From Acidimicrobiales bacterium (GTDB taxonomy: Bacteria; Actinomycetota; Acidimicrobiia; Acidimicrobiales; Bog-793): a stretch of 64,000 nucleotides of DNA. The position numbers and the translations under genes are program-made. Below the pieces are notes generated by a model that was given only the letters and a program-made list of their open reading frames with translations, did no database searches and had not been told where the DNA came from. Below are positions 38,161 through 54,969 of the stretch, piece after piece. Location: positions 32,109-96,108 of the forward strand of contig JBEKBI010000003.1 of the NCBI GenBank assembly GCA_050015475.1, in the 5' to 3' direction. Every line of letters begins with the position of its first letter. Positions within the stretch are counted from its first letter, which is position 1.

Positions 38161-39318
38161 ATGGCTACTGACGTCGTGCCTGCAACCCTCGACCCCACTG
38201 CGCTCGCGCAGTTCGAGCCTCCGGCCGTTGCCGGAGCGCCCGTACCCGTCCCCGACGAGGATGTGCCGACCCCGCTCCACCGCGTGGCCTTGGAGGACGT
38301 TTACGCGGTAGTCGGATCGTTGGTGGGATCCTTTGGACTCGTCTGGTTGGTGTTCTCCTATGTCCTTCCGCTGAGTGGCACGGTCGGCTTCGTGCTGTGT
38401 TGGGATGCCGCCTTCCTCGCCATGTACGCCGGTGTCACCGCCCTCAGCCATCCACGCCCAGTTGTGGTGAGCAGGGTAATGGCCGCGGTCATCGTCGGGC
38501 TCGCGGTGCTCGTGGGTTTCGTCCTCATGACTGTTGTGGTCTACGTAGTGGCCCACGGCTACCACGCCGTAGCGCATCTCAACTTCTTCACCCAGTCGGC
38601 CTCGGCCGGTTCGCTGACGGGGACATTCAAGCAAGGCGGGATCTTTAACGCCCTGGTCGGCTCGCTGATCCAGGTGGGCGCCGCGATAGCCATCGCCCTT
38701 CCCCTGGGGATCGGCACAGCGGTGTTCATGACGGAGACGCGCGGCTGGTTCGTCAAGCTGGTACGGACCGTCGTTGAGGCCATGACAGCCGTCCCCGACC
38801 TCCTCGCCGGCTTGTTCATCTACGTCGTGTTTGTCCTGCCGTTTCACGGCAACTACCCGTGGGGGCACAAGAACGGATTCGCGGTCTCCTTGGCCCTGGC
38901 CGTCGCTGGCACGCCGATCATCGCCCGCTCGGCGGAGGTGGCGCTTCGCGTGGTGCCTGGAGGCTTGCGGGAAGCCGGTCTCGCTTTAGGTGCGTCGCAC
39001 TGGCACACTGTCCGTCGGATCGTGCTGCCCACTGCCCGGCCAGGACTGGCGACCGCATTGATCCTGGCCGTCGCCCGCATGATCGGCGAGAGCGCGCCTC
39101 TTTTGATCGTGTCCGGCTTTACGACCTTCTTCAACGGAAATCCGTTCGACGCCCAGCCGATGATCTCGTTGCCTCTCTACGTCTACGAGACCCTTCGCAG
39201 TGGGCAGCCGGTCGAGATCGTCCGAGGGTTCGGCGCAGCGTTCGTACTGCTGTTCATCGTCTTCATACTGTTCGCCGCCACGAGAGTGCTGGCGCGTCAG
39301 AGGGTGAGCGCCCGATGA
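38161..39318 (+). CDS. pstA: Phosphate ABC transporter permease
   Basis: 'REAGLALGASHWHTVRRIVLPTARPGLATALILAVARMIGESAPLL'. Has a long N-terminal extension with an extra TM region. Confidence 0.88.
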   Translation: MATDVVPATLDPTALAQFEPPAVAGAPVPVPDEDVPTPLHRVALEDVYAVVGSLVGSFGLVWLVFSYVLPLSGTVGFVLCWDAAFLAMYAGVTALSHPRPVVVSRVMAAVIVGLAVLVGFVLMTVVVYVVAHGYHAVAHLNFFTQSASAGSLTGTFKQGGIFNALVGSLIQVGAAIAIALPLGIGTAVFMTETRGWFVKLVRTVVEAMTAVPDLLAGLFIYVVFVLPFHGNYPWGHKNGFAVSLALAVAGTPIIARSAEVALRVVPGGLREAGLALGASHWHTVRRIVLPTARPGLATALILAVARMIGESAPLLIVSGFTTFFNGNPFDAQPMISLPLYVYETLRSGQPVEIVRGFGAAFVLLFIVFILFAATRVLARQRVSAR

Positions 39319-39448
39319 GCTTCGCCACGCTTTGCGCCCGCTGGTGGAGACCGCGGGTATGTCCGCGTGCATCACGTGTCGACGGGCCCGTCACCGGAGG
39401 TGCGCCGACCGTCGGAGCGAACCACTCGAGCCGCAGAGGAGAATTGTC

Positions 39449-41200: not shown

Positions 41201-43977
41201 GAGTTTCCATGCCGCGCCACCGCGTCGCACTATCCCGGATCGGGATGGCCTTGGCGGTGCTGCCCGTCCTCATGCTGACCGCCCTGCCGGCTCACGCTTC
41301 GGCCCCGAGCACAGCGTCATGCGGCGCCCGATCGGTCACGACCAACGGGACATCGTTCTCTGCTACGGAGACGCTTTGCAGGACGTTCTTCGACCAGGGG
41401 GTGGTCGACCGTCGGACGTTCACTGTGACGGTCTCCCAGACGACTAATCTGCGTAACGACCAGGTCATCACGGTTTCGTGGTCCGGCGCGCACCCGACAG
41501 GCGGCATCGTCTCGGCCGAGCAGTTCGCGGCCGCCGCCGAGCAGGAATACCCGGTCGTACTGATGGAGTGCCGAGGCGTCGACTCGCCGGACGTGCCGGC
41601 AGCAAGGCGCCTCTCTCAGGAGACATGCTGGACCGCCACGCCCGCAGAGCGGGTCGTCGCCACGCCGTCCCCTTACTCGATGTGGAGCTTGGACGGGGAC
41701 AATGCCGCCGACGGCGTATGCACACAGCGGTACTGCAACATGCCGATACCGATACCGTCCAACTGCGCCGGCGAGGTAGCACCTGGTCCCAACTACTGGC
41801 TCCCGTTCGACGCCGCTAACGGGACTGACTACGCCATCGGACCGGATGGCTGCGACGGCTCCCCGCCGGAGATGCTCGTTGGGGGCGAGGACCCGGACAT
41901 CATCCCCAGCGATACGACCTATGCCGAGACCGAGCTGAACGGGACCGGGTCGGCGAAGTTCACGATCATGACGTCCGAGACCAACGCCTCTTTGGGGTGC
42001 TCCCAGACCGTTCCCTGCTCGCTCGTAATCATCCCGATCGACGGGATCAACTGCAACGCGAACCCCCAAGTGAGCTCCCCCAACTACCAGTGCGAGTCTC
42101 TCGGAACCTTCCCGGCCGGATCCGTCAACACGGGGAGTAATCCGTACCCGCCTGCGCAGGCGGTCACCGGCGTCTACTGGTGGAGTGGCAGCAACTGGAA
42201 TCGCCGGATCTCCGTGCCACTCAGTTTCGCCACTCCCGCGAATGCATGCGCCAACAATGTGCAGGCTCCGCTTTTGTTCTACGGGTCTGAGGTGATGACC
42301 CTGCTCGCCGAGCAGTGGGACCCGGCTTTCTGCCTCAACTCCAAGCTGTTCAACGTCAACGTGGTCCAACTTCCCGAACCCGTCGCCAAGAACTCCCTGC
42401 AGCAGGGGTTCATCGAGGCTGCCATCCAAGGGGAGCCACCCCCGGTGCCGGCGGGGCAGAAATCGTTCTTCACCAAGCCCACCGTGCAGGCGCCTGTGGC
42501 GGTGAGCGGGTTCGCGATCGCCTATGTCATCGACAACGGGAATGGCTCCGCGTACACGCAACTCCGGCTCGACCCTCGCCTGTTGGCCAAGTTGATGACG
42601 GAGTCCTATTCCGGGACAACCGACGTGCAGGCCGACTGGCAGGTCACCGGCGAGGAGCTCGGATCAGCACCCGACGAGTGCCCGGCGAACTGCAACTCCG
42701 AGTACGCGGCGATGGCGAATAACCCGCAGAGCATCTTCGAGGATCCCGAGTTCCTCGCTCTCAATCCCGGGTTTCATGCCCCCAACGGCATACTGCGGGC
42801 GCCGGCCTCGACGTTGTTCAGCATTCTCTCCCAGTCGGACGTGATCTGGGCTCTCACCTCGTACATCAACGCCGATCCTGAGGCTCGAGCCTGGCTCAAC
42901 GGGAAGCCCGACCCATGGGGCATGGTGGTCAACCCGGCCTACAAGGGCATCAAATTGCCGGTCGACTCCTGGCCACTGCTCGACACGACGACCAATGGTC
43001 CGGAGTACACCGAGACCGGCAACCCGTTCTGCGTCGGAGCGCTCGGAAACGGCACTGCAAAGGTTCCCATTCGGCCGCTGATCGACAACCCCCAGGAGAA
43101 CCTGGGATACGTCGCCTACAACATGCAGTACTCGATCGCCGCGTCCCTTACCGCATGCAACGGCAACACCCTCACGCCCGAATACACGGAGCTTGGACCA
43201 GAGACGCTCGGCAACCGGTTCCTCCTCGGGCTGGTCTCACTGCCCGACGCGGACGAGTTCGACCTCGACACAGCAGCACTCCAGACCTACGCCAACCCGG
43301 AGCGTGAGACCAACGACGGGCCCCTATTCCCTGTGGGCCGTTCCTTCGTGTCCCCGACTCCGGCTTCGCTCGAGACGGCTGCGGCGTTGATGACGCCGGA
43401 CACCGCCGCGGGCACCTGGGTGCTTGCCTACAACGCTCTTCACAGCGACGCCAAGGCCAAAGGGGCTTACCCAGGCACGATGCTGCTTTCCGCCGACGTG
43501 CCTACGAAGGGTCTGCCTGCCAGCGACGCTGACGACTACGGCAAGTACCTGTCGTTTGCCGCCACAACCGGGCAAACACAGGGCTTCGCCGTCGGTCAGC
43601 TCCCGCACGGCTACGTGCCCATGACCTCGAGCGAGGCGGACTACACCAAGGCGGCCGCGGCCGACGTGGCAGCTCAGAACGGGAAGGTCCCGTCCTTGGC
43701 CGCTCAGCCTCCTTCCACGACCACCACCACTACCACCACCACGACCACCGTGGTCACGACCACCACATTGGCGCACGGGAGCTCCACCACCACCACCGTC
43801 GCTTCGGGGGGAACGACAACCACTACGACAACCCAGCCGGGGGATCTCGTCGGCGCGACTCTCGGTCTGGAGGCAGGGGTCGGTGGCCTCGCTCTGCCCC
43901 TGGCCCTGTTGGTGGCCCTTCTCGGAGGAGTGTGGACTGCCGGAATCATGCTGCGGCGGAGGCGGAGCCGGTCGTGA
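41197..43977 (+). CDS. 926-aa secreted, Cys-rich surface protein of unknown function (distal part possibly PBP/PstS-like), poly-Thr stalk, C-terminal TM anchor plus RRRRSRS
   Basis: ATG overlaps the pstS-like stop (ATGA). Signal peptide 'MALAVLPVLMLTALPAHASA'. Later segments ('LLFYGSEVMTLLAEQW', 'APVAVSGFAIAYVID...LRLDPRLLAKLMTESYSG', 'GAYPGTMLLSADVP') loosely resemble type-II PBP blocks. Tail ...TTTTTTTQPGDLVGATLGLEAGVGGLALPLALLVALLGGVWTAGIMLRRRRSRS. Confidence 0.75.
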   Translation: MRVSMPRHRVALSRIGMALAVLPVLMLTALPAHASAPSTASCGARSVTTNGTSFSATETLCRTFFDQGVVDRRTFTVTVSQTTNLRNDQVITVSWSGAHPTGGIVSAEQFAAAAEQEYPVVLMECRGVDSPDVPAARRLSQETCWTATPAERVVATPSPYSMWSLDGDNAADGVCTQRYCNMPIPIPSNCAGEVAPGPNYWLPFDAANGTDYAIGPDGCDGSPPEMLVGGEDPDIIPSDTTYAETELNGTGSAKFTIMTSETNASLGCSQTVPCSLVIIPIDGINCNANPQVSSPNYQCESLGTFPAGSVNTGSNPYPPAQAVTGVYWWSGSNWNRRISVPLSFATPANACANNVQAPLLFYGSEVMTLLAEQWDPAFCLNSKLFNVNVVQLPEPVAKNSLQQGFIEAAIQGEPPPVPAGQKSFFTKPTVQAPVAVSGFAIAYVIDNGNGSAYTQLRLDPRLLAKLMTESYSGTTDVQADWQVTGEELGSAPDECPANCNSEYAAMANNPQSIFEDPEFLALNPGFHAPNGILRAPASTLFSILSQSDVIWALTSYINADPEARAWLNGKPDPWGMVVNPAYKGIKLPVDSWPLLDTTTNGPEYTETGNPFCVGALGNGTAKVPIRPLIDNPQENLGYVAYNMQYSIAASLTACNGNTLTPEYTELGPETLGNRFLLGLVSLPDADEFDLDTAALQTYANPERETNDGPLFPVGRSFVSPTPASLETAAALMTPDTAAGTWVLAYNALHSDAKAKGAYPGTMLLSADVPTKGLPASDADDYGKYLSFAATTGQTQGFAVGQLPHGYVPMTSSEADYTKAAAADVAAQNGKVPSLAAQPPSTTTTTTTTTTTVVTTTTLAHGSSTTTTVASGGTTTTTTTQPGDLVGATLGLEAGVGGLALPLALLVALLGGVWTAGIMLRRRRSRS
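43717..43833 (+). repeat. Coding low-complexity poly-Thr tract (acc/acg runs)
   Basis: PPSTTTTTTTTTTTVVTTTTLAHGSSTTTTVASGGTTTTTTT, read from the sequence. Confidence 0.85.
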
Positions 43978-44936
43978 CAGTGATCGACGCCGACGCTTTC
44001 GACCTCGTCATCGACCGGTCCGATGGTGCTCGGTCCCCCACCCCCGAGACATCGGCCCCGGCTGCTCCGGCGAGCGTATCGAGCAGGCGGAACGCGCGGG
44101 CGATCGCTCGCGGTGTGGCAGTCGCGATACCGACCGTCCTCGCCGTGCTCGCGTTGTGGTTCCTGGCGTACGGGTTTGTCCTGAGCGGCGTCGAGCAACA
44201 TGTGTCCCAATCCCGCCTCTACGACGAGTTCCGTTTGGAGTTGGCGGCAGAAACGGCACCCCTGGCGGAGCCGGTGCAGGTCGGATCGCCGGTGGCCATC
44301 CTCAACGCCCCGTCGGCGGGGATCGACAACCTCATCGTGGTCGAAGGCACGACATCCCGACTTCTCATGTCCGGCCCCGGCCACCTGAGCGACACCCCGC
44401 TACCGGGGCAGGCTGGCACGTCGGAAATCCTCGGGCGCAGCGTCACATTCGGGGCCCCCTTCGGCCGCATCACTCAGATGTCCGTGGGCGATGTTGTCAC
44501 GGTGACCACAGGCCAGGGAGTCTTCCGTTACCGCGTCGAGGACATCCGCGAGCCGGGAAACCGGCTCCCTCCGCCGCTCCACGCCGACGGCTCCCGGCTC
44601 ACGCTGGTGACCTCGACGAGTGGAGGGTGGAGAAGCGGATGGGCTCCGACTCACACCGTGTATGTCGATGCCGTTCTCTCGGGAAAGGCCCAGCCGTTGC
44701 CCGCGGGGGTGCCGGCAACGGTTAGCCAAGCTTCGCTCCCGATGCACAGCGACCCGACTGCTGGTATCGCGCTCATCTTCTGGCTCGAGGGCCTTGTCCT
44801 TGCCTCTCTCGCCATCGGCTGGACGTGGGTTAGGTGGGGCCGGTTCGAGACATGGATTGTCGGAACGCCCGTGTTCATCGCGGTGCTGTGGGGGACGACC
44901 GAAGCCCTCATGCGGTTCCTGCCGAACCTGTTGTAG
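43974..44936 (+). CDS. Sortase-fold membrane protein (class E-like architecture) lacking the catalytic Cys and His: candidate pseudo-sortase or non-canonical enzyme
   Basis: GTG overlaps the upstream stop (GTGA) and follows GGAG. N-terminal TM helix, then 'NLIVVEGTTSRLLMSGPGHLSDTPLPGQAGTSEILGRSVTFGAPFGRITQMSVGDVVTVTTGQGVFRYRV...RLTLVTSTSGGW'. This matches sortase blocks, but AGHR is LGRS and TLxTC is TLVTS. The 320-aa protein has zero Cys. Two C-terminal TM helices. Confidence 0.6.
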   Translation: MTVIDADAFDLVIDRSDGARSPTPETSAPAAPASVSSRRNARAIARGVAVAIPTVLAVLALWFLAYGFVLSGVEQHVSQSRLYDEFRLELAAETAPLAEPVQVGSPVAILNAPSAGIDNLIVVEGTTSRLLMSGPGHLSDTPLPGQAGTSEILGRSVTFGAPFGRITQMSVGDVVTVTTGQGVFRYRVEDIREPGNRLPPPLHADGSRLTLVTSTSGGWRSGWAPTHTVYVDAVLSGKAQPLPAGVPATVSQASLPMHSDPTAGIALIFWLEGLVLASLAIGWTWVRWGRFETWIVGTPVFIAVLWGTTEALMRFLPNLL

Positions 44937-45140: not shown

Positions 45141-45440
45141 TCAGACCTGGCGGACGTGGCAAGGATGAATCGTGAAGTCGAAGACGCCTTTCACGGCAAA
45201 GCAGACGGGAACCAGCCGCCTGGCAAGCAGCGACAGGATCCATGCTCGAAAGAACCGTTGGGCGATCTCCAGACGTGCGAACTCCACGACCATGAGAGAT
45301 GCCACGAAAATTGCCACACCAGCTGCACGGTCGGCCTCGATGCCGAACGGGAGCGCCGTGAGGGCCTGGGTGCTGCAGATGGCGTACGCGCTGGGCAACC
45401 GGCGGACCGGTCCGCGCCTCAGCGGCGTATGAAGCGCCAT
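45141..45440 (-). CDS. Possible small membrane protein (about 99 aa), function unknown
   Basis: MALHTPLRRG...ALTALPFGIEADRAAGVAIFVASLMVVEFARLEIAQRFFRAWILSLLARRLVPVCFAV. Locally lower GC. No obvious SD. Last gene position of the minus-strand surface operon. Confidence 0.35.
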   Translation of the reverse strand: MALHTPLRRGPVRRLPSAYAICSTQALTALPFGIEADRAAGVAIFVASLMVVEFARLEIAQRFFRAWILSLLARRLVPVCFAVKGVFDFTIHPCHVRQV

Positions 45441-45501
45441 CCGGAACTGGCGTCGACTCGAGCCGGGGCCAATCGAATCTCGCCGGCTGAACGCCCGGGC
45501 G

Positions 45502-46335
45502 TCAGGCCACTCGCCGCCGGCGTCGGAAGAAGAACAGCGCGGCCCCCCCGGCAAGGAGCAGGGCCGCGATCACTCCTCCGGCGATCGCACCCGCGGAAGC
45601 GCCACCTCCCGAACCCGACGTGGCTCCTTGGGCAGTCTTCGAGGCGCCCCCACCAGAAGGCTGCGTGGAACCCGTGGAGGCAGATCCGCCCTTGCGCCCG
45701 GGAGCCCGGCCAACCTTTACTGGCGGCTTGGGTACGGCGGTCTCCGACTTGGGCAGGACGAGCGATTCCTCGGACACGGCAGTCCCATCGGTGCAGGAGG
45801 ATCCACCCCCCTGAACCAGGGTCCAAGTGGTGCCAGTGACCCTGATGACGGCCGTCGGGTAGCTGGTTGTCCAGGCCTGCTCGTCGGGGCTGGAGAAAAC
45901 CATTCGCAACTGGTACAGGCCATCCCAGTACGGCGGCGTCGAGTGATCCGGCCAGATCAAGGGGGCGTCAGCGTAGGTGGCTTGCGCCATCGGGTGGTCC
46001 CGGTTCGAGAACGTTGCGTCGTCGGTCAGCTGATAGCCCGTCCAGTCTCCTGGATCCAAGTACTGAAGCGGCTGGAACAGGTCGAGCGTGGCCCTGGTGT
46101 AACCCGCAGGAGCAGGAGCCGAGGACACCGCTCTCCACACGAATGGAATGGTCAGCAGGCTGCCTGAAGTGATCGGCTGTTCGTGTGCGTTGCACAATGT
46201 CAGCGAACCAACTCGATTGGGATCCGTGAAGGGGACCTTGGAGCCGCTGGCGAAAGCGGCCGACGGTACGACAAGCGCGCCGACGGTAACCACCAAAACA
46301 AGTGCCCCCCTTGTCAGCCAACTCCGGGTGCTCAT
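45502..46335 (-). CDS. Secreted protein of unknown function with Gly/Ser stalk and C-terminal TM anchor plus RRRRR
   Basis: Start at MSTRSWLTRGALVLVVTVGALVVPSAAFA (signal peptide), 7 nt after the DUF916 stop. Tail ...GSGGGASAGAIAGGVIAALLLAGGAALFFFRRRRRVA. Confidence 0.7.
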   Translation of the reverse strand: MSTRSWLTRGALVLVVTVGALVVPSAAFASGSKVPFTDPNRVGSLTLCNAHEQPITSGSLLTIPFVWRAVSSAPAPAGYTRATLDLFQPLQYLDPGDWTGYQLTDDATFSNRDHPMAQATYADAPLIWPDHSTPPYWDGLYQLRMVFSSPDEQAWTTSYPTAVIRVTGTTWTLVQGGGSSCTDGTAVSEESLVLPKSETAVPKPPVKVGRAPGRKGGSASTGSTQPSGGGASKTAQGATSGSGGGASAGAIAGGVIAALLLAGGAALFFFRRRRRVA

Positions 46336-46342
46336 TTGAGAT

Positions 46343-47563
46343 TTATTCTCTTTCTCGCTCAGCCGGCGCCACTGGCGTCGGGTCCTTGGCAGCAGACTCG
46401 CGTCCGACGACCTGACGCTTCGCAACACGGCCCGAGGCCGGCGCATCGCCGGATTGGGATTCCTGCTTGCCGGTGTCGTCTCCCTCCCCTGGCTTGTCCG
46501 AATCCGCTGCCGATCCACGACCCCGCCGGCGGCGGCGGCGATAGAACCAACCGAGCGCGATCAGGATCGCTGCAACGATGATTGCTATCAGTGTCCACGG
46601 GATGGCCCAGAACGACCGCGAGGCCTGGAAAGGACCCGACGACGACGCGACCGAACCGGCTATGTAAAGAGGCTGAATGGACACGTGGGCCGTCTCGCGA
46701 ATCTCGGGGAATATGCCCGTCACCTCGACGGCCTCTTTGACCGAGTAGCCCGGCAGCAAGAGCTGAAGCCTCGGGACGCCAGTGGCGGTGGACCGGCTCC
46801 CGAACAACCCTGAGACGTAGACCGTCTGAAGCCCGCCTAGGGCGACGTTGCCGGTGTTGGAAACGGTGTAGGTGACCCTTGCCTGGCCGGTGCCGATCGG
46901 GTCGAGCGTCCCTTGATAGTGGACCGCGAGCCCGGTGATGGTGAGAGACGGGCGCAACCGCCCGCTTACACGTAGGAAGATTCGGGTGCCGACGGTCTGC
47001 AACAGTCGCACCCGCTCGCCGCTTTTCGATATCACGGACGACACGAGGGTGGCGGTGATCACGCCGATATGGTCGCCGGGCGTCGCGTTTGCGGGCACCT
47101 CGATCAGGAAGGGGATGATGAGGACGGAGCGGGGCCGGAGCGTCAGCTGCAAGTCCGACTTGGGTAACAAGATCCAGGTGCCGAGGTCGTGAGAGCGCTC
47201 GTCGATGGGCCGCGCCGCGAAGCCGCCTTGCGGGGTGTTGATGCCGTCAGTTCCCCGTATCAGAAAGGTCGCTGTCTGGTCGGAGTAATTGAGGATCGCG
47301 ACGTGATCCTCGATCCGCCCACCGGGCGTCGACCCGAACAGGTAAATGCCCCGGTTGTCGGGCTTGGTGGCGGAAGCCGTCTGCGTGCCGAAGGTGACGA
47401 CGTTCCTCCGCTCCGACGGCGCCTTTTGCCCGTACGCCGGAGCAAGAGAAAGCAACAAAGCGAGGGCGCAGCTCACGACGGCTGCAATAGACAAATAGAG
47501 CCGGGTGGATCGTCGGATTGTCGTGTCGCGAGGCTGCATTTGGCGTGTCCGAATATCATCCAC
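46343..47563 (-). CDS. DUF916-type cell-surface protein (CscA-like, WxL-locus associated), C-terminal TM plus poly-Arg and an acidic/basic tail
   Basis: Signal peptide, then 'YLFGSTPGGRIEDHVAILNYSDQTATFLIRGTDGINTPQGGF', 'WILLPKSDLQLTLRPRSVLIIPFLIEVPANATPGDHIGVI', 'RIFLRVSG' and a second Ig-like half. TM 'WTLIAIIVAAILIALGWFYRRRRRRGRG'. This pattern matches DUF916/DUF3324 proteins as I recall them. Confidence 0.7.
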   Translation of the reverse strand: MDDIRTRQMQPRDTTIRRSTRLYLSIAAVVSCALALLLSLAPAYGQKAPSERRNVVTFGTQTASATKPDNRGIYLFGSTPGGRIEDHVAILNYSDQTATFLIRGTDGINTPQGGFAARPIDERSHDLGTWILLPKSDLQLTLRPRSVLIIPFLIEVPANATPGDHIGVITATLVSSVISKSGERVRLLQTVGTRIFLRVSGRLRPSLTITGLAVHYQGTLDPIGTGQARVTYTVSNTGNVALGGLQTVYVSGLFGSRSTATGVPRLQLLLPGYSVKEAVEVTGIFPEIRETAHVSIQPLYIAGSVASSSGPFQASRSFWAIPWTLIAIIVAAILIALGWFYRRRRRRGRGSAADSDKPGEGDDTGKQESQSGDAPASGRVAKRQVVGRESAAKDPTPVAPAERERE

Positions 47564-47676
47564 GAGGTTGAGGAGCCGTTCGTTTCATCAGCTATGGAGA
47601 ACGGTTACGACGCTTCAGTCTACCTGGTCAAGATGGATGGACATTGGCGGCCGCAACCCTCGTAGAAACGGCAGGA

Positions 47677-47700
47677 GCGGGACGGCCGAGGCCGCCCCGC
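47677..47700 (-). terminator. GC-rich hairpin downstream of the WxL-like gene (10-bp stem, one mismatch)
   Basis: gcgggacggc c gag gccgccccgc, read directly, about 60 nt after the stop at 47759. Confidence 0.3.
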
Positions 47701-47758
47701 CCCTCTGATTTCGATAACCGCGCGAGCTTGAGTGGCCCGACGGCCCTCCTTCTGCCGT

Positions 47759-49630
47759 CTAGGAGACGGAGAAGGTGATGGTGCCGCTGTAGGTGCCGGC
47801 CGGGGTGCTGGTCGCTGCGTACAGCGTCAGCGTCCCGTACATCAGAGCCGTGCCATCAGAGGCGCTGCTTACGGCCCACGTCTGTGCTGTGGAGCCGAGT
47901 CCAGGACCGGTGCCAGGACCGTCCACCGGGCTCGGGTTCTTCGCAACGATGTTGTTGAAGGCCACGTCACCGGCGTAGGCGCTGGTTCCGGTGGAGTTGT
48001 ACTCGCCGCCGGTCAAACCAAGGCCCGAAGCCGGGATCGAGTTAGCGCCGCTGGTAAGCGCCGTCGCCGAAACCGAGAGCGTCCAAGCGTAGGCGGGAGC
48101 CAGAGTGCTGGTCACTGTGATGTCCTGATCTCCGGCCTTCGGGAACTGCGCCGAGGACTGGAAATAGGTGCCATCACTGCTCAGTGTCATCGCCGGAAGC
48201 ACGAACGGGTTGGTGCTCGTGTACGGCGTGCTGATCGTGATTGTGCCTGGGTTTATGGTCACCTGGAGGTTCTGGGTGTCCGAGCAGACCGAACCGGCGT
48301 TGGCAGGCGGGCAAACAGCCGGAGCCGCAACCGTGACCGAGACCGCGGACGACGTCGAGGACGCGTACGAGTTGCTGGTCGGGCTGAACACGGCCGTAAT
48401 GCTGTTGCCGCCCTGGGGCAGGGAGCTCGTGTCGCAAGTCGCCGTGCCGCTGTATGGCGAGGTCGTGCTCACCGTGGTCACCTGAGCTGTGCAGCCGGCG
48501 ATCGCGGTGGTGCCGTTCAGAAACTCCACGTTCCCAGCCAAGCCCGTGCTGACGCTGTCGCTCTCGGTAACCGTCGCCGTCAAGTCCACCGGCGCGCCGT
48601 AAGCGGCGCTGGCGGTGTTGGTCGACAGCGCGGTCGAGGTTGCAACCTGCGGCGGGGTGACCGAAACCGGCACCGAGGACGAGCTCGAGCCGCCCACGAA
48701 GCTTGCATTCCCCGACCCCAACACAGTCGTGGTCGAGGCAGTCTCGTCACCGGGTGCCGGGACGAAGGTCGCCGTGTAGCTGTACGAGCCGGCGGTCGGC
48801 GCGTACGTGTAGGTGGCGACTCCGGCGCTCGGGGTCACGTCGGCCAGGAAGGTGGTGCCGTTGTAGAACTGCACCGTTCCAGCTGCACTGCTCGACACCG
48901 TAGCCGTCAGGGTGACGGAGTTCGGTGTGACCACGTGGGCTGCCGACGCCGTGAGGCTCGTGGTCGTGGCGCTGACGAACGGGTACAGGACCGCCCATCC
49001 ATCCGCTGGCACTGTGGTGCCATCCAGCGTGATTGCCGACGACGTCGTGTTGTAGCCGATGTCGCTCTCCCAGTAGGTGCCGGTGCTGTTGCCAGCGCCG
49101 CCCGCACCCGAGTCGGTCAGGCGAACCTGGATGGTGTTGACGTAGCCGGTGGTGGTGTCGCTGGGATTAACCGAAATGAAGCTGGTGATGTTGGCTGCTG
49201 ACGTGGCCGCGACCGGGTACGAAGCCGCGTCGGCCACGATGTCAGCGGGCGTGCCAGTAGGCAGGCTGGAGGCGGGATTGAAGGTCGTCGTGCCGCTCTC
49301 GGCCGTCCCTGTCCAGCCCGCCGGCAGGACGCCGTGCACTGGGAGGTAGAAGTTGACGATGGCCTTGTTGGCTCCCGAGTCGGGGGCGGTGCTGGCCACG
49401 ACGTAGGCGAACGGACTGCTCAGGTTGGTCCCGCTGGTAACCTGCACTCCGTTGGAGTTGTAGAAGGTGAGGTTGCCGTAGGGGGCTGCAGCGTTTGTGT
49501 CGGGTTCCCAGGGGGGAGCCGTAGTCGCCGCAAAGGCCGTACTCGCAATAGCGAGCAGCCCTCCTCCGGCGATGGCTGCGGTGAGCAACCCTGCCACCGC
49601 CACCTTGAGACTTCGCTTCGTTGGCTTCAC
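47759..49630 (-). CDS. Secreted surface protein: novel N-terminal domain, Ig-like repeats, C-terminal WxL-type domain
   Basis: GTG start follows GAAAGGAAAG. Signal peptide ...IASTAFA. Ig-like modules ('VTLTATVSSSAAGTVQFYNGTTFLADV...YSYTATFVP', 'VDLTATVTE...GNVEFLNGTTAIAGC'). C-terminal about 190 aa ('LQVTINPGTITISTP...ITVTSTLAPAYAWTLSVSATAL...GTLTLYAATSTPAGTYSGTITFSVS') looks like a WxL domain. Confidence 0.72.
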   Translation of the reverse strand: MKPTKRSLKVAVAGLLTAAIAGGGLLAIASTAFAATTAPPWEPDTNAAAPYGNLTFYNSNGVQVTSGTNLSSPFAYVVASTAPDSGANKAIVNFYLPVHGVLPAGWTGTAESGTTTFNPASSLPTGTPADIVADAASYPVAATSAANITSFISVNPSDTTTGYVNTIQVRLTDSGAGGAGNSTGTYWESDIGYNTTSSAITLDGTTVPADGWAVLYPFVSATTTSLTASAAHVVTPNSVTLTATVSSSAAGTVQFYNGTTFLADVTPSAGVATYTYAPTAGSYSYTATFVPAPGDETASTTTVLGSGNASFVGGSSSSSVPVSVTPPQVATSTALSTNTASAAYGAPVDLTATVTESDSVSTGLAGNVEFLNGTTAIAGCTAQVTTVSTTSPYSGTATCDTSSLPQGGNSITAVFSPTSNSYASSTSSAVSVTVAAPAVCPPANAGSVCSDTQNLQVTINPGTITISTPYTSTNPFVLPAMTLSSDGTYFQSSAQFPKAGDQDITVTSTLAPAYAWTLSVSATALTSGANSIPASGLGLTGGEYNSTGTSAYAGDVAFNNIVAKNPSPVDGPGTGPGLGSTAQTWAVSSASDGTALMYGTLTLYAATSTPAGTYSGTITFSVS

Positions 49631-49710
49631 TTAGAACTTTCCTTTCGGTTGGCTAGCTGATCGGTGTCTGGGGAGTTGCCGTATAGCGCAGGAGTACTGC
49701 GCCTGGCCGC

Positions 49711-49741
49711 CCCCTCTCTCCCCAGAACGGGGAGGAGAGGG
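49711..49741 (-). terminator. Hairpin after the PBP-like gene (6 bp, 1-nt bulge, 6 bp; cccctctctcccc agaac ggggaggagaggg)
   Basis: Read directly, 26 nt downstream of the stop at 49767. No U-tract. Could be a partial terminator or processing site inside the operon. Confidence 0.35.
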
Positions 49742-49766
49742 ACAGACAGGTGATCGGCCCTTACAG

Positions 49767-51500
49767 CTAGCAGGAGCCAGCGGTGTCGGTACCGGTGAGT
49801 TCGGTGCAGATCTCCGGGATGGTCGGGGTGATTCCGGCGTCCTCGAGGAGCGTCTGACCTTCGGCGGAGTCGATGTACGGGGCTCCGTCAGGCCCGTAGG
49901 TCGCAGCGTTTGCTCCGGAACCCACGGTGATGCAGTTGTTCGCCCCGGCTGGGCACGGGTCGTAGAACAGGGTGTTGAGCCAGTTCTCCGTCGTACCGGG
50001 CTGCCAGGCAGTGGTCGAGGCGATGTCGCTGTTGCGGAACAGGAGGAACAGGGGTCGGGTCGGGTCGAACAGACCACTCGTGTAGCCACTGGCGGAGTAG
50101 ACGCCGAGGCCAACCGGTCCCGTTGTCCCGGTAACCGATGTACCCGTGCTGGCGGTGATCGTCACGACGTTCGGCGACACGGCCTTGGGGGTCCCGAGGC
50201 CACCGTTCGCGCTGCCACTGGTCTCACATGCCGCGCTCCCAACCAGGTAGGCACAGCTGGGGTCGAGGAAGTAACCGCCACTAGGAAGGCCACCGGATGC
50301 GCCGGTGTTGCTGACGCCCCGGTAGAGGTCGAGGCGGCCCTGCGACATGGGCTCGATGGCGTCCGCAGGAGTACCTGCGACGTCAAAGATGGCCGTCGGG
50401 TCATTCTCTTCCGAGACCAGGGCACAAGCCGGCACGTAGCTGGTGTTGCTCGACAGGCCGATCTGCTGGAGGAAGTACTTACGAGTGCCCGAGCCAACCT
50501 GCGGGATGAGCGGGATGATCTTGTCGCCGCTCGCCGAGGGGTTGACAAGGCCGACGTTGTCCGACGTGCTGGTGGAGAAGCTCGAGGGAAGAGCGTCGCT
50601 CAGGGTGATGGTTCCTGTCCCAGCGCTTGAGACGGTCTCAGGTGAGCCGTTCTCTCCGTCGACCACAGCGCCGTTGACCTCAACTGCCCAGCCATCGTTG
50701 GCCGAGGTGGGTTGCTGCGGGTCGCTGCTGGGGAACGTGACGGCTTTCGAGCTGGCGGTGAGGCTGGCACCCTCCAGGTAGACCCCAGTGATCTCCGGGT
50801 CGTTCCAGGTGATGCAACCCGATGCCGGGGCTGTGTAGATGTAGTTCAGCTGCAACGCCGTGAGCGGCACGGCGTTCGTGCTGACACCGGAAGTGATCAT
50901 CGGCAGCGTGTCAGTGGCGATCTGGAGCTGGTCGATCGTCGGTATTGATGACGACGGGTTGCTCCCGGTCTCCGAGGAGGAGGACCGCGCGAAGTTGATG
51001 ACCTCGCTGCTCGCGGAGTTGTGGCCGGCGGTCACGTCCTGGACCAGGGCGTTGAATCCGGCGCCAGAGCCGTTGGGCCGTAGCACGGGCTGAAGACCGG
51101 CCCGCAGCACCACCGTCGGGTTGAGCACGCAGGGAGCACCGCTGTTGGGCGACGTCTGGTTGCCTGTTCCAGAGCCGCTCCCGGTGCCGGGCGTGCAGCT
51201 CGACTGGCCGGTTTGGCCACCGTCGACGCCGTAAGCGAGGCGAGCGTTGGCGTCGGCCGTCGCGTCGATGTCGACCACCTTGTACTTGTTGCCGAGCTGG
51301 TTGTAGCCGGTGTCGCCGTAGGCATTGCCGTCCGCCAGGAAGTCAATCCCGTACTGGATGGTGTCAGATCCGACGCCAACCACGTCACCTTTGTTGGGGG
51401 CGTAATCCGCGTATGCCGAAGGCACCACGAGCGCAAGTGGCAGCACTGCGGCCACCACCGTCGCCGCAGCTAAGCCAAGCTTCAGTGTGCGGTGTCTCAA
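49767..51500 (-). CDS. Secreted PstS/PBP_like_2-fold substrate-binding-like protein with large insertions (third PstS-fold protein of the island)
   Basis: TTG at 51500 follows GAAGGAG (ORF extends to 51545). Signal peptide LKLGLAAATVVAAVLPLALVVPSAYA. 'VVGVGSDTIQ', 'LRPNGSGAGFNAL', 'INFARSS', 'LTALQLNYIYT...ITWNDPEI', 'IPQVGSGTRKYF' follow the PstS-family block order. No lipobox or TM anchor. Confidence 0.6.
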   Translation of the reverse strand: MRHRTLKLGLAAATVVAAVLPLALVVPSAYADYAPNKGDVVGVGSDTIQYGIDFLADGNAYGDTGYNQLGNKYKVVDIDATADANARLAYGVDGGQTGQSSCTPGTGSGSGTGNQTSPNSGAPCVLNPTVVLRAGLQPVLRPNGSGAGFNALVQDVTAGHNSASSEVINFARSSSSETGSNPSSSIPTIDQLQIATDTLPMITSGVSTNAVPLTALQLNYIYTAPASGCITWNDPEITGVYLEGASLTASSKAVTFPSSDPQQPTSANDGWAVEVNGAVVDGENGSPETVSSAGTGTITLSDALPSSFSTSTSDNVGLVNPSASGDKIIPLIPQVGSGTRKYFLQQIGLSSNTSYVPACALVSEENDPTAIFDVAGTPADAIEPMSQGRLDLYRGVSNTGASGGLPSGGYFLDPSCAYLVGSAACETSGSANGGLGTPKAVSPNVVTITASTGTSVTGTTGPVGLGVYSASGYTSGLFDPTRPLFLLFRNSDIASTTAWQPGTTENWLNTLFYDPCPAGANNCITVGSGANAATYGPDGAPYIDSAEGQTLLEDAGITPTIPEICTELTGTDTAGSC

Positions 51501-52372
51501 TTTGAACTCCTTCAATTGATCGTCAAGGATCGCACGCCTTCGCAAAATGGGTGCCTTTTAGGAATAACATGCGAAGATGTTTTTCCAACCTCCACGAGGT
51601 GAACAGGCCATGAATTTTGCGTGATTCCTTTACATATTGAGGAGAATGTCCTGGTCATCTCCTGAGGACCGCGGCTTGTCCGGATGCCTGCCCGGATGGC
51701 CGGATCCTGACCATTCACGGCTCCACGACCACGCGGCGTGGGCAAGCCGAGACAAGCCTCCGTCTCCAGCCTGACGAAGGCTGCCATCAAGCCGAAAACG
51801 GGGATCTCCACCCGTCCCCGACCCCTCCGTCAGCCCACAGAGGCTTGACCTGAACGACAAGCACGCCGTCGCTGGGCCGCCAAAGCCGCTAATCGCGACG
51901 ACGACACCCCAACAAGAGGACCGGCTGACCCAACCGGGCGCAAAGGGTCGCCGGCGACACGACGCGGGAGTTTGGGGACCTGTTGAGAGACGAACCCGTC
52001 TTCGCCCACCACAAGTCCGTGCGCCACTTCTACCGTTTTGGCGGGCGAGGTCTCGCCTCGGCACTAGGGCGCGGGAGCCCATCCACACAACCCACAGCCG
52101 GCGTCGACTGTAGCCAAGCTGGCCTGCAGGTCTGGCACGAGACGGACGGCTCGTTCAGCCTCTGCGCGGGTGAGTCTGGACTCGAAGCCAGCAAGTCGTC
52201 CGGAATCTCGAGGATTCCGCCAACCATGGAAGCCCCAACTTCTCGACCAAAGCAGGCCGCGCCGGTCCGCGTTGCACCGTTCACCGCCTCGACCCGAGCA
52301 GCAGCTCGTTTAGCACCCTCGGGCGAGGCGGTGGGTTATGCGGCCTCGCGGTCGCCGAGGCGACACGGACCG

Positions 52373-54169
52373 TCAGCTGATGGTCAGGACCTTGCCGGTT
52401 CCCCTGCCGCCGCCACCGGCGGCACTATTGACGACGGTGACCGACAGGTCCTTACCCGCCTTGGCGTTGGAGGCCACCTTCATGACGGCGGTGAACCTGT
52501 CCGAGCTGAGGATCTTGCCCTTGGTGAAGGTCACACCAGCGGGACCTATGAGGGTCAGCCCGGCCACGAAGCCGGTGCCGCCGATCGTCACCGAATACGT
52601 CTTGCCGGGTGACACTTTCGACGGGGACATCGCCTTCACGGTCGGGTTGGCGACGATGGTCAGAACCTTGCCAGTTCCCTCGCCGTAGCCGCCGGCGGCG
52701 TTGTTGATGACTGTCACCGCCAAGTCCTTGCCGACCTTCGCGCTCGAGGCCACCGTCATCGTGGCGGTGAATTTGGTGGAACTGACCACTTTGCCCTTGG
52801 TGAACTTCACCCCAGCAGGACCTGCGATGCTTGCTCCGCCCATGAAGCCAGTGCCTGTGATCGTTACGGCCTTGGACGCTCCGGGTACCACTGGCGACGG
52901 CGTGAGCGACTTCACGGTGGGACCGGCGACGATGGTCAGGCAACTCGTGCAGTTACCTGAGTTCGACGAATCGGTGACGCCGACGGTGGCCGCTCCGACA
53001 GTTGCCGACGACTCGACTGTCGCCTTGGCGGTGATGGTGGTGGAGTTGACCACGGTCGCCGAGGAGAAGCTGACGCCATCGACGGTAATGGTGGGCGAGG
53101 TGTCGGTGACAAACCCGGTGCCAGTGACTGTGATGGCGATGTTCGATGCTCCCTGGCCCAGGGGCGTCGGTGCGAACTTCGTCACCGTCACCGTGGAGGT
53201 ACCGATCGTGAAGGGGACCGTTGTCGACGCAGACCCGCCGATGATCGTCGCTGTAGTGCTGTCGGCTCCGGTCTCATCGCCCAGGTTGGGCACGAAGTCA
53301 GCGGTGTAGCTGTGGTCGCCGGCAGCCGGTGTGTAGGCGTAGGTGTAGCTCCCGGAGCCGGGGGTCGTTGAGTCGGCCAGGAAGGTGCCGTTGTCGTAGA
53401 ACTGGACGACACCCGCGGCGGTGGAGGGCGTCACTGTGGCCTTGAGCGTGATCTGGGTACCGGGGGCCTGAGGACTCGCTGGCAGTGCTTCCAGCGAGGT
53501 GGAGGAACCGCTGATGAGGGGAAACAGCTGGGCCCAGCCGTCGGCTGGCACACTCGTTCCGTCGACCACAGTCGCCAACGAGGTCGTGTTGTAGCCGATG
53601 TCGGCCTCCCAGTAGGTGCCGGTGTTATTCCCGGCCCCGTACGGGCCCGAGTCGGTCAGGCGGACCTGGATGATGTTGGCATAGCCGCTCGTGGTGCTCG
53701 GGGAATTCGACGACAGCCACGTGCTGATGTCCGCCGTCGAAGCAGCCGAGACCGGATACGTGGGTGCGTACGCCACGAGGTCGGCAGGCGTACCAGAAGG
53801 AAGGCTGGAAGCCGGGTCGAAGGTCGTCGTCCCGCTCTCGGCTGTGCCGGTCCAGTTGCCCGGCACGACTCCCGGCTGGGGGTTGTAGAAGTTGACAGTG
53901 GCCTTTGTGGCTCCCGTGTCGGCGGCAGTGCTGGCCACGACATAGGCGAACGGGCTGGTCAGGTCATTGGTCCCACTAGTGACCTCCGCACCGCTGGCGT
54001 TGTAGAAGGTGAGGTTCCCGTAGGGGGAAGCGGCGTTGGCGTCGGGCTCCCAGGCTGGGGCCGCCGGTACCGAAGCGGCACTGACTCCGACGGCCATCAG
54101 AGGTGCCCCCAAAACCAAGAGCGATATCCCCATCAGTACAGCTGACCTTGCCCAGCGCGATGCTCGCAT
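52373..54169 (-). CDS. Secreted protein: same novel N-terminal domain as 47759-49630, an Ig-like module, then three IPT/TIG-like repeats; no anchor
   Basis: ATG at 54169 follows GGGAAGGAAG (ORF extends to 54334). Signal peptide MRASRWARSAVLMGISLLVLGAPLMAVGVSAAS. N-terminal about 300 aa roughly 65-70% identical by eye to the WxL-like protein. C-terminus has 92-aa repeats 'PTVK.L.PS.V.PG....VTI.GTGF..G....GPAGV.FTKGK..SS..FTA...VAS.AK.GKDL.VTV.N.AAGG.G.GTGKVLTI'. Confidence 0.75.
   Translation of the reverse strand: MRASRWARSAVLMGISLLVLGAPLMAVGVSAASVPAAPAWEPDANAASPYGNLTFYNASGAEVTSGTNDLTSPFAYVVASTAADTGATKATVNFYNPQPGVVPGNWTGTAESGTTTFDPASSLPSGTPADLVAYAPTYPVSAASTADISTWLSSNSPSTTSGYANIIQVRLTDSGPYGAGNNTGTYWEADIGYNTTSLATVVDGTSVPADGWAQLFPLISGSSTSLEALPASPQAPGTQITLKATVTPSTAAGVVQFYDNGTFLADSTTPGSGSYTYAYTPAAGDHSYTADFVPNLGDETGADSTTATIIGGSASTTVPFTIGTSTVTVTKFAPTPLGQGASNIAITVTGTGFVTDTSPTITVDGVSFSSATVVNSTTITAKATVESSATVGAATVGVTDSSNSGNCTSCLTIVAGPTVKSLTPSPVVPGASKAVTITGTGFMGGASIAGPAGVKFTKGKVVSSTKFTATMTVASSAKVGKDLAVTVINNAAGGYGEGTGKVLTIVANPTVKAMSPSKVSPGKTYSVTIGGTGFVAGLTLIGPAGVTFTKGKILSSDRFTAVMKVASNAKAGKDLSVTVVNSAAGGGGRGTGKVLTIS
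52379..52930 (-). repeat. Two tandem 276-nt coding repeats (92-aa IPT/TIG-like modules), followed by a diverged third copy
   Basis: 'gatggtcagRaccttgcc' recurs at 52379, 52655 and 52931, an exact 276-nt period. Confidence 0.85.
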
Positions 54170-54294
54170 GCGGCTTCCTTCCCGTTGAATTCTTTGCGAT
54201 CCGAGCGAGGATTCTAGGAAGCCGACTTGACCGTCCGATGTAGAGCAGGCAACGGGAAGATTCCAAGCAGGTGAATTCGATCTATCACGATCGA

Positions 54295-54969
54295 TCAGCT
54301 GTGCTTGAGGACCGTATACTCCGCGTCGGCCCACGACCCAAGCTCGACTGGCGCCACGGCTGGTTCCGGGGTTGCGTACGCGATCTGGAAGTAGAAGTTG
54401 TGGGCCGTGTCGACGATGGCGTGGTAGTAGCCGCCGTTGTAAGCCTTCGTGCCGTTCGCCTCGACAGCTCCCGGAACGCGAGGGAAAGGCGCGAGCGTGG
54501 CGCCTGCGTAGCTGAGTGTGCTCGGTTTCGTCTCGGCGAAGTAGGCGCTGGCGCCTTTAGAGGACTTGAACTCGATCACAGTGACGATCAGCCCTTCGCC
54601 CGTATTCGCGTTCACGTAGCTCTGTTTGAAGCCGGCGACGAACCCGAACTTCGACGGCGACCGCACTCCGCCGAACTCATCGAACAGGGTCGGGGTTATA
54701 GCGCCCGAGGAATGCGCGGTGGGGTCGATCTCGTAGCCGTAAGGGGCTGGCAAGATCCTGGTCGTCAGCTGGCGCGCGGTCAACAGCCCTGGCGCGGTGA
54801 CCGCCTTGGGACCGGAATTGCACCCCGTGGCCGCCAGGACCACGATGAAAACAAGGACTGCAAAGCCCAGCCGGGTCGGCCGGATTCTTGATGCGCGACT
54901 ACTTGAGATGGCATCCAGATCGGTGGGCATAATCGGCGCGTCCTCTAACGGGGTGTTCGTCGCGGACAT
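54295..54969 (-). CDS. Lipoprotein of unknown function
   Basis: Lipobox 'VVLAATGCNSG'. Start may be MPTDLDAISS at 54930. No family recognised. Confidence 0.6.
   Translation of the reverse strand: MSATNTPLEDAPIMPTDLDAISSSRASRIRPTRLGFAVLVFIVVLAATGCNSGPKAVTAPGLLTARQLTTRILPAPYGYEIDPTAHSSGAITPTLFDEFGGVRSPSKFGFVAGFKQSYVNANTGEGLIVTVIEFKSSKGASAYFAETKPSTLSYAGATLAPFPRVPGAVEANGTKAYNGGYYHAIVDTAHNFYFQIAYATPEPAVAPVELGSWADAEYTVLKHS

Follow-up and report, generated by a model that had tools for sequence, protein, structure and literature searches.

A putative actinobacterial counterpart of the Firmicute WxL/WxLIP locus, encoded alongside a Pst-type importer and a sortase-like protein

WxL and WxLIP proteins are currently viewed as a feature of Lactobacillales and Bacillales that is tied to gut commensalism and virulence. 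WxLIPs consist of a PGBD/DUF916 domain, an HBD/DUF3324 domain and a transmembrane (TM) helix, and the definition of a WxL gene cluster requires two WxL genes (Hassan et al. 2023, PMC10599100). According to published surveys, >91% of WxL domains are found in Firmicutes, and the only mention of actinobacterial DUF916 proteins is a supplementary table that lists them as 'isolated' domains. Here, we describe a locus related to these clusters in a 64,000-nt stretch of DNA (hereafter the window) of contig JBEKBI010000003.1, from an Acidimicrobiales bacterium of the Bog-793 group (GCA_050015475.1). All coordinates for this genome are window-based.

The region 45141-51500 of the window harbours four convincing minus-strand genes, hereafter called A, B, C and D, whose products all have N-terminal signal-peptide-like segments (Table 1). 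A sequence-only reading of this region had described an actinobacterial version of the Firmicute locus. The gene order, the TM segment and poly-Arg stretch of C and the 7-nt gap between C and D that it reported are real, with the ATG of D located exactly 7 nt past the stop codon of C. That reading had also stated that these genes converge on a pst/sortase-like operon, and we could identify all the genes of this plus-strand operon, which converges on gene D. We propose, with a probability of about 0.6, that A-D represent the actinobacterial counterpart of the Firmicute WxL/WxLIP (Csc-type) locus and form one half of a module of about ten genes, which would capture phosphate, an oxyanion or a phosphorylated ligand at the cell wall and feed it to the ABC importer. 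The closest relatives of A-D and of the pst-like proteins come from Acidimicrobiales/Acidimicrobiaceae metagenome-assembled genomes (MAGs) from peat and soil. Our literature search found no paper on actinobacterial WxL clusters, on this module or on this kind of pseudo-sortase.

The WxLIP homologue and its WxL-type neighbour

The product of gene C, which probably starts at the ATG at 47539, is composed of an N-terminal hydrophobic helix (residues 15-38 in the structural model), a PGBD/DUF916 domain (residues ~58-200), a second Ig-like domain (residues ~207-320), a TM helix (residues 323-347), a poly-Arg stretch and a disordered cytoplasmic tail. A search for homologues yielded 307 proteins, and those sharing 50-60% identity with C carry the DUF916 signature (PF06030). 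Homologues from Streptomyces and Amycolatopsis are already annotated as DUF916 or 'WxL protein peptidoglycan domain-containing' proteins. PF06030 is matched by 39 of 44 diverse homologues of C, with a best E-value of 5e-11. Searching the PDB with the family profile of C retrieved EfmWxLIP1 (residues 5-129, E = 1.2e-4), and hhalign placed the 'gR.yF.F' motif of the family over the 'YFDL' motif of the Firmicute proteins (E = 1.2e-3).

The AlphaFold model of C (pLDDT 83, and >95 over residues 58-320) consists of two beta-sandwiches followed by the TM helix and the disordered tail. Its top Foldseek match in the PDB is the WxLIP from Enterococcus faecium (9i1y, E = 6.4e-11, TM-score 0.58), with an alignment of 278 columns over the 267-residue target 9i1y_A that covers both domains. 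The second-best match, over ~278 columns, is 9i25, a WxLIP bound to a long WxL (E = 2.5e-10). Because its homologues carry PF06030, its family profile matches EfmWxLIP1 and its two-domain model matches 9i1y and 9i25, we assign C to the WxLIPs on the basis of profiles and modelling. The homologues and the structural match to the E. faecium protein thus support the DUF916 assignment made in the sequence-only reading. The DUF3324 domain (PF11797), for which it had also suggested a search, is undetectable by sequence in C, and the model displays a second Ig-like domain. After WxLIP and RbmA, the model of C matches two-domain chaperones of chaperone-usher pili, namely CfaA, SafB, FimC and CsuC.

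The product of gene B comprises a signal peptide, an N-terminal head domain (hereafter N-dom), Ig-like repeats of the Big_3_5 type (8e-17) and a WxL-like domain. In this family the WxL-like domain is 160-190 residues long and strictly C-terminal. The closest homologues of the C-terminus of B are mostly stand-alone proteins of 200-250 residues, which match small WxL proteins in size. When 1.84 billion representatives were searched with a profile, 455 clusters were collected, in all of which the domain is found at the extreme C-terminus. Among 56 distant members, 36 carry Big_3_5 repeats and 16 match the WxL signature PF13731, the best of these matches (E = 4.5e-5, 24.0 bits) extending over positions 39-209 of 214. 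PF13731 also matches the family consensus (6e-5, 23.5 bits) and the syntenic Streptomyces orthologue (1e-4, 22.7 bits).

As a Firmicute reference, we used four annotated WxL proteins encoded by the E. faecium plasmid pDMEA1, the Lactococcus lactis plasmid pSK11P and a Bacillus tropicus plasmid. A profile-profile comparison by hhalign of 19 actinobacterial sequences, including that of the window, with these four proteins gave a probability of 92.9% and an E-value of 3.8e-7 over 145 collinear columns. The invariant Trp of the family, which in B belongs to the first motif, 'AWTL', pairs with WxL motif 1, and the terminal T-F-T pairs with T-W-T-L. The AlphaFold model of the C-terminus of B is all-beta, with a pLDDT of 85.8. 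From these comparisons, we place the C-terminus of B in the WxL superfamily, as a divergent domain that escapes Pfam. The WxL assignment of the sequence-only reading therefore holds by profile-profile comparison and homologue sets rather than by a direct Pfam match.

The product of gene D consists of an N-dom, a Ser/Thr/Gly-rich linker and a tail, GGGASAGAIAGG, followed by a C-terminal TM segment and RRRRR. Its N-dom aligns with the N-terminus of B (E = 2e-8), in agreement with the family alignment. This head of ~150-200 residues is common to B, D and a 653-residue secreted paralogue of B, the N-dom of which is 60% identical to that of B over 307 residues. Profile searches found no Pfam or PDB relative of N-dom, and the 653-residue protein has neither a WxL domain nor a TM anchor. 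When D itself was compared directly with Pfam and NCBIfam, no usable match was obtained, and the same was true of the C-terminus of B. Additional N-dom paralogues are common beside the cluster in related genomes. Gene D directly follows C in loci of Acidimicrobiia, Frankiaceae, Jatrophihabitans and Mycobacteriales. In Streptomyces sp. NBC_01214 (locus L006, 10001..12007), C continues in frame, as a fusion protein, into a second TM segment and a D-like ectodomain. The latter and the head of the WxL protein encoded in the same locus share 68% identity, and this head domain differs from N-dom. The head of the anchored protein thus appears to track that of the WxL protein within each locus. In other Streptomycetaceae (L019, L021-L023, L025 and L026), the open reading frame (ORF) of C has 225-287 additional residues after the WxLIP domain, which end in a TM segment with a basic tail. 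With respect to the small anchored protein of csc loci, to which D had been likened, position and anchoring are alike, and we found no sequence likeness to the Firmicute LPXTG protein.

PstS-type and sortase-like proteins and their co-conservation with the WxLIP gene

The convergent operon codes for an ATPase and two permeases of the Pst type, a PstS-like substrate-binding protein, a 926-residue secreted protein and a sortase-like protein. In the PstS-like protein, a linker rich in Gly, Ser and Asn is combined with a C-terminal TM segment and a basic tail, and the protein scores 160 bits against the TIGR00975 profile, whose cut-off is 205 bits. In E. coli PstS, phosphate is bound by T10, S38, D56, R135, S139, G140 and T141, which we mapped onto the proteins of the module by motif alignment. 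These positions are mostly kept in the orthologues of the PstS-like protein, with Arg in 17 cases, His in 8 and Gln in 3 at the R135-equivalent position.

Gene A, whose true start is probably located near 51500 and is preceded by a GAAGGAG motif, codes for a protein without any membrane or wall anchor. The protein itself gave no direct match to Pfam or NCBIfam and nothing in a phmmer search of the PDB. Its homologues at ~50% identity carry PF12849 (PBP_like_2) and are named phosphate-binding proteins, and the profile of the family matches the PstS-family structures 1twy, 4q8r and 4gd5 at E-values of 2e-4 to 3e-3. The PstS motifs of A align with those of the neighbouring PstS-like protein and of a 331-residue PBP-like protein encoded at the same position in Streptomyces. 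The PstS/PBP_like_2 fold proposed for A in the sequence-only reading is thus supported through its homologues and its family profile, and we predict that A has a PstS-family fold with a non-canonical pocket.

The 926-residue protein, whose C-terminus consists of a TM segment followed by RRRRSRS, has no Pfam match, nor do its orthologues. A profile built from 11 orthologues retrieved PstS-1 from Mycobacterium tuberculosis (7dm1 and 1pc3, E = 3.3e-6) and other PstS structures, and the protein appears to have a PstS fold with very large insertions. Given this match, the module would encode three PstS-fold proteins.

The sortase-like protein has one N-terminal and two C-terminal TM segments and a conserved end, LPNLL. 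Its score against the class E sortase model is 63.6 bits, for a cut-off of 160. Alignment with the solved sortases 5uus, 4d70 and 5go6 showed that the active-site His, Cys and Arg residues are replaced by Arg, Ser and Thr, respectively, in the window protein. Among 29 orthologues, the His-equivalent residue is Arg in 28 and Lys in 1. At the Cys-equivalent position, 15 orthologues have Ala, 10 have Ser and 1 has Thr, 3 are gapped and none has Cys. From these alignments, the protein is predicted to be a pseudoenzyme. We considered a shared LPXTG-like sorting motif in the tails of the D, PstS-like and 926-residue families and rejected it, as none precedes their TM segments. No LPXTG or LAXTG motif was found in D and its orthologues, an LADTG motif being present in one Streptomyces locus only, in the D-like segment of L006, and the window encodes no LPXTG-type protein. 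Because the sortase-like protein lacks the catalytic Cys and His residues, the TM segments with arginine tails are probably plain C-terminal membrane anchors and not sorting signals.

We then determined how widely these genes occur together. A scan of one genome per GTDB species identified 265 relatives of C, and all counts of loci given here refer to the best 80 of these 265. Hidden Markov models of the window proteins were used to search the six-frame ORFs of the 80 loci, which all belong to Actinomycetota except for one MAG labelled Acidobacteriota. In 44 of the 80 loci, C is preceded on its own strand by a WxL-like gene at a distance of at most 3 kb. In 26 loci, genes for the 926-residue and WxL-like proteins and for the sortase-like and/or PstS-like proteins are found together with that of the WxLIP. 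All five markers (PstC, PstS-like, 926-residue, sortase-like and WxL-like) are present in 20 loci, and in several of the remaining six the flank is cut short by the end of the contig. The 26 loci span at least five lineages: Acidimicrobiales, Streptomyces/Actinacidiphila (Streptomycetaceae), Actinokineospora, Jatrophihabitans and a Mycobacteriales MAG, together with two MAGs labelled only Actinomycetota/Actinomycetes. The genes are codirectional in 21 of them and convergent as in the window in the other 5, which are its closest relatives. In Streptomyces sp. NBC_01214, the one-strand order is PstC-like, PstA-like, PstS-like, 908-residue protein, small PBP-like protein, WxL-type protein, WxLIP with its fused D-like part, sortase-like protein and ATPase. 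In a Rugosimonospora locus (L039), pst, 926-residue and sortase-like genes surround the WxLIP gene, and no WxL-like gene was detected.

The search of representatives also yielded a 688-residue protein (P0280) in which a PstS domain of the type found in the cluster (residues 1-473) is fused to a WxL-like C-terminus. By its predicted domains, this fusion links phosphate-binding proteins with WxL-type wall display. The synteny comparison called for by the sequence-only reading recovered the gene set in 26 of 80 independent actinobacterial loci, which is more than expected by chance. Its suggestion that A-D and the pst/sortase operon form a single envelope system gains support from synteny across actinobacterial orders, in both layouts, and from the gene fusions.

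Neighbouring features and a candidate regulatory repeat

The features of the window are listed in Table 1. A possible mini membrane protein had been proposed downstream of D (ORF E). We rejected it and do not count it as a gene, because it has no homologue in 86 related loci and the intergenic DNA between D and the sortase-like gene is not conserved. A scan for promoters and terminators gave results not above chance. Directly upstream of the pst-like operon are genes for a GGDEF-EAL protein and for an OmpR-family response regulator, the latter divergent from the operon. Another OmpR-type regulator is encoded ~5 kb from the cluster in the related locus L001 described below. Beyond A, the gene of the 653-residue paralogue is just followed in coordinate order by that of a 224-residue protein with a lipobox-like 'LAATGC' motif, and farther on by that of a 965-residue multi-pass membrane protein with a Cys-rich N-terminus and Thr-rich linkers, which has no Pfam match.

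Table 1. Coordinates of genes, domains and other features in the 64,000-nt window
Feature	Position	Strand	Remarks
GGDEF-EAL protein	33278..34714	+	
OmpR-family response regulator	34711..35727	-	
PstB-like ATPase	36312..37154	+	ABC_tran 3e-34
PstC-like permease	37042..38151	+	BPD_transp_1 1e-8
PstA-like permease	38161..39318	+	BPD_transp_1 8e-17
PstS-like substrate-binding protein	39332..41200	+	PBP_like_2 8e-30; TIGR00975 PstS 7e-47
926-residue secreted protein	41197..43977	+	apparent much-expanded PstS-type fold, from orthologue profile vs PDB
Sortase-fold protein, predicted pseudoenzyme	43932..44936	+	Pfam Sortase ~9e-12 to 1e-11
ORF E	45141..45554	-	unsupported as a gene
Gene D, stand-alone N-dom protein	45502..46335	-	~278 residues; ATG at 46335
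N-dom of D	45802..46251	-	
Gene C, WxLIP homologue	46343..47563	-	406 residues; TM segment then RRRRRR
Gene B, large WxL-type surface protein	47759..49630	-	623 residues; contains APAYAWTLSVSATAL, terminus GTYSGTITFSVS
WxL-type domain of B, divergent	47759..48331	-	C-terminal
Big_3_5 repeats of B	~48326..48925	-	Ig-like
N-dom of B	48926..49540	-	head domain
Gene A, predicted secreted PstS-family (PBP_like_2) fold with large insertions	49767..51545	-	592 residues; signal peptide
Direct repeat upstream of A	51598..51615	-	ATTCATGGCCTGTTCACC (RTTCA-N6-GTTCAYC, 11-nt phasing); ~55-100 nt upstream of A
653-residue secreted paralogue of B	52373..54334	-	N-dom, Big_3_5 and three TIG/CoaZ-type repeats
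N-dom of the 653-residue paralogue	53465..54085	-	
224-residue protein	54295..54969	-	lipobox-like motif
965-residue multi-pass membrane protein	55877..58774	-	

The window contains no other exact match to the direct repeat upstream of A, and three orthologous loci (L008, L010 and L011) have kept it in their promoters. Its GTTCACC core resembles the units of Streptomyces PHO boxes, and the repeat may represent a binding site for a regulator of the OmpR/PhoB family (PhoP-type).

Competing explanations and comparison with known systems

In the function that we propose for the module, C and B would pair as WxLIP and WxL do in the E. faecium complex: C would hold the divergent WxL domain of B by complementing it with a strand, and their pairing would display the Ig-like stalk and the N-terminal head of B at the wall. 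The observation that supports such a pairing is the adjacency of the two genes in 44 of the 80 loci. D would expose this same head from the membrane by means of a simple C-terminal anchor. The unanchored A protein, the 926-residue protein and the TM-tethered PstS-like protein might bind phosphate or a related ligand and pass it on to the Pst-type importer, with the pseudo-sortase acting as a non-catalytic assembly or scaffold factor. The analysis showed the homologies and folds assigned above, the joint conservation of the genes, the fusions and the loss of the catalytic residues of the sortase, and we infer that the proteins may form a physical complex, what their ligand would be, that transfer would be directed to the importer and that the module may be regulated by phosphate. 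A more elaborate version seems unlikely: the strand-complementing WxLIP-WxL pair, a monoderm equivalent of the chaperone-subunit pairs of pili, would serve as a wall scaffold, the three PstS-fold proteins (one free or held at the wall, one a giant of ~900 residues and one TM-tethered) would relay phosphate, or phosphate freed from head-bound polymers, from the wall to the membrane and the importer, and the dead sortase would be an assembly factor. If this relay exists, WxL systems in general would be wall-embedded capture scaffolds and not host adhesins.

A number of results weigh against the counterpart reading, and they concern the assignments of C and B as well as the link to phosphate. An hmmscan with the three signatures named in the sequence-only reading gave a weak match of PF06030 to C itself (E = 0.18, covering positions 24-118 of the 121-position model), which is below the Pfam threshold, and no match at E <= 10 for PF11797 in C or for PF13731 in the C-terminus of B. 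PF11797 is also absent from the 25 families most matched by the 44 homologues of C, and hhalign did not align it. In B, the second motif is 'TFSV' ('TFSV' or 'TFTV' in the family), with Phe in place of Trp. No member of the family reaches the 25-bit gathering score of PF13731, the best score being the 24.0 bits mentioned above. A narrow profile restricted to Acidimicrobiia reached a probability of 20% only in the hhalign comparison with Firmicute WxL domains (E = 1.1e-3), and neither the narrow nor the broad WxL-like profile retrieved a WxL chain from the PDB sequences, including the long WxL of 9i25. The best Foldseek matches of the WxL-like model in the PDB are the chaperone-usher pilins CfaB and CsuA/B, which are weak (E >= 2.6e-3, TM-score 0.3-0.46), and the 21 closest relatives of the C-terminus of B, when compared with Pfam, gave weak matches to SCPU and DUF4402 and none to WxL. 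In addition, the cluster does not correspond to the published definition of a WxL gene cluster, as the 64-kb window contains one WxLIP gene and one WxL-type gene, without a second WxL-type gene. On these grounds the C-terminus of B might be an unrelated beta-sandwich, pilin-like or SCPU/DUF4402-like, in a DUF916-only cluster that resembles Csc loci. We regard this as improbable, as the broad hhalign alignment is collinear over the full length and places motif on motif, PF13731 is the only family matched repeatedly, over most of the domain, and the domain is always C-terminal, 160-190 residues long and encoded beside a WxLIP in 44 of the 80 loci.

Regarding the link to phosphate, the pocket of A has Asp, Ser and Pro at the positions equivalent to T10, D56 and R135 of E. 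coli PstS, and the PstS-like protein of the window has His at the R135-equivalent position. No match to a strict double PHO box of the Streptomyces type was found, and the repeat present upstream of A is absent upstream of the pst-like operon. Furthermore, locus L001 (6393..12095 of the 488-kb contig_949) harbours a 74%-identical A-B-C-D set with no pst or sortase genes within 10 kb, and the two halves are therefore separable. The cluster of L001 is flanked by transposase, integrase, resolvase and reverse-transcriptase genes, and the four-gene unit may move as a cassette. In Glycomyces, Micromonospora and Plantactinospora, we found a WxLIP gene, with or without a WxL-like gene, next to a different ABC ATPase gene, or a WxLIP gene alone. 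The coupling of WxL/WxLIP genes to pst genes is thus not obligatory. The altered pocket of A, the pst-less L001 and the many other actinobacterial WxLIP loci without pst genes are what one would expect if the proteins formed a surface complex for adhesion or biofilm formation, in which the PstS-fold proteins were surface adhesins or structural modules that bind the wall and the importer was only loosely coupled. By homology to WxL and WxLIP proteins, the model proposed for Firmicutes, in which complexes held at the wall attach to external surfaces, can be extended to this locus, and a variable head on Ig-like stalks, as in B, D and the 653-residue paralogue, is typical of adhesins. This main rival nevertheless seems unlikely to us, given that the importer, PstS-like, 926-residue and sortase-like genes stay with those of the WxL-like protein and the WxLIP in 26 of the 80 loci, in distant lineages, that the Streptomyces module is a single codirectional string bracketed by transporter genes, that the PstS-like protein retains most phosphate-binding positions and that a PstS-WxL fusion exists. 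Yet another view attributes to the sortase-like protein a non-canonical transpeptidase or protease activity, which would process the tails of D, the PstS-like protein and the 926-residue protein and link these proteins covalently to the wall. The sortase fold is conserved and always encoded in the cluster, and the C-termini of the three proteins resemble sorting signals in that a Gly-rich stretch precedes the TM segment and the basic tail. LADTG is also found in one D-like segment from Streptomyces, and the Acidimicrobiia clade has Ser at the Cys position. With the catalytic His replaced by Arg or Lys in all 29 orthologues, no nucleophile conserved at the Cys position and no LPXTG-like motif shared by the three families before their TM segments, we consider such an activity highly improbable. 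As for the possibility that the two operons are chance neighbours and the minus-strand genes code for unrelated secreted proteins, it would fit with their convergent orientation in the window, where they are not co-transcribed, and with the absence of the pst half in L001, but the recurrent synteny and the fusions make it hardly credible, and the synteny statistics effectively refute it.

If the counterpart reading is correct, these results extend the WxL system to a second monoderm phylum, including the genetically tractable Streptomyces. Actinobacterial DUF916 proteins would be full WxLIPs adjoining WxL domains that Pfam has missed, and ~455 sequence clusters that current annotation overlooks are flagged. 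In approximately one third of the loci, the WxLIP and WxL genes belong to a conserved module that also encodes a phosphate-type importer. The capture of phosphate or another oxyanion provides a testable functional hypothesis for the WxL family, and the analysis also reveals a conserved sortase-fold protein predicted to be a pseudoenzyme.

Like the Firmicute Csc/WxL clusters (cscA-D of Lactiplantibacillus plantarum and loci A-C of E. faecium with EfmWxLIP1, PDB 9i1y and 9i25), the present locus combines a WxLIP gene with those of a large protein with a C-terminal WxL domain and of a small anchored protein, all products are secreted, and fold and profile-profile matches support a common ancestry. 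Unlike the Firmicute clusters of gut-associated Bacilli, it is found in Actinomycetota of soil and peat, and it has one WxL-type gene where those clusters have two or more. The second Trp-x-Leu motif is T-F-S/T-V, and the HBD domain of C (PF11797) cannot be recognized by sequence. Whereas the LPXTG protein of the Csc clusters (CscD) is processed by sortase, D is a protein of ~280 residues with a TM/Arg anchor that shares the head of the large protein. The actinobacterial genes are also coupled to those of a Pst-type importer, three predicted PstS-fold proteins and a pseudo-sortase, unlike those of Firmicutes. On the Firmicute side, we observed that the WxL/WxLIP cluster of the E. faecium plasmid pDMEA1 contains a gene for a lytic polysaccharide monooxygenase (L087, 2277..3644), a hint that WxL clusters deal with polymers and not only with host adhesion.

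The plus-strand half of the module resembles the PstSCAB importers, as represented by E. coli PstS and M. tuberculosis PstS-1 (1pc3/7dm1), in having an ATPase, two permeases and a PstS-type protein with most ligand positions. It differs from them by the score of the PstS-like protein, which is below the equivalog cut-off (160 vs 205 bits), by the C-terminal TM tether of that protein in place of a lipid anchor, and by the presence of two extra, much-expanded predicted PstS-fold proteins, with a changed pocket in A, and of a constant sortase-fold putative pseudoenzyme. The latter shares a family-level sequence match and an N-terminal membrane anchor with the class E sortases of Actinobacteria (5uus, 5go6). 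It departs from them in three respects: neither the catalytic His nor the catalytic Cys is kept in any scorable orthologue, two TM segments are added at the C-terminus, and the score is far below the class cut-off.

Finally, the pair formed by C and B recalls the chaperone-usher pairs CfaA-CfaB, CsuC-CsuA/B and FimC-FimA, since the model of C resembles the chaperones and that of the WxL-like domain weakly resembles the pilins. In both systems, pili and WxLIP-WxL complexes, a donated strand completes an incomplete beta-sandwich (PMC10599100). Unlike chaperone-usher pili, the actinobacterial locus involves neither an usher nor an outer membrane, and the likeness is structural only (TM-scores of 0.3-0.57, 10-16% identity) and may be an analogy. 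The chaperone-like matches of the C model and the pilin-like matches of the B model suggest that a chaperone-subunit-like pairing might operate in monoderm bacteria.

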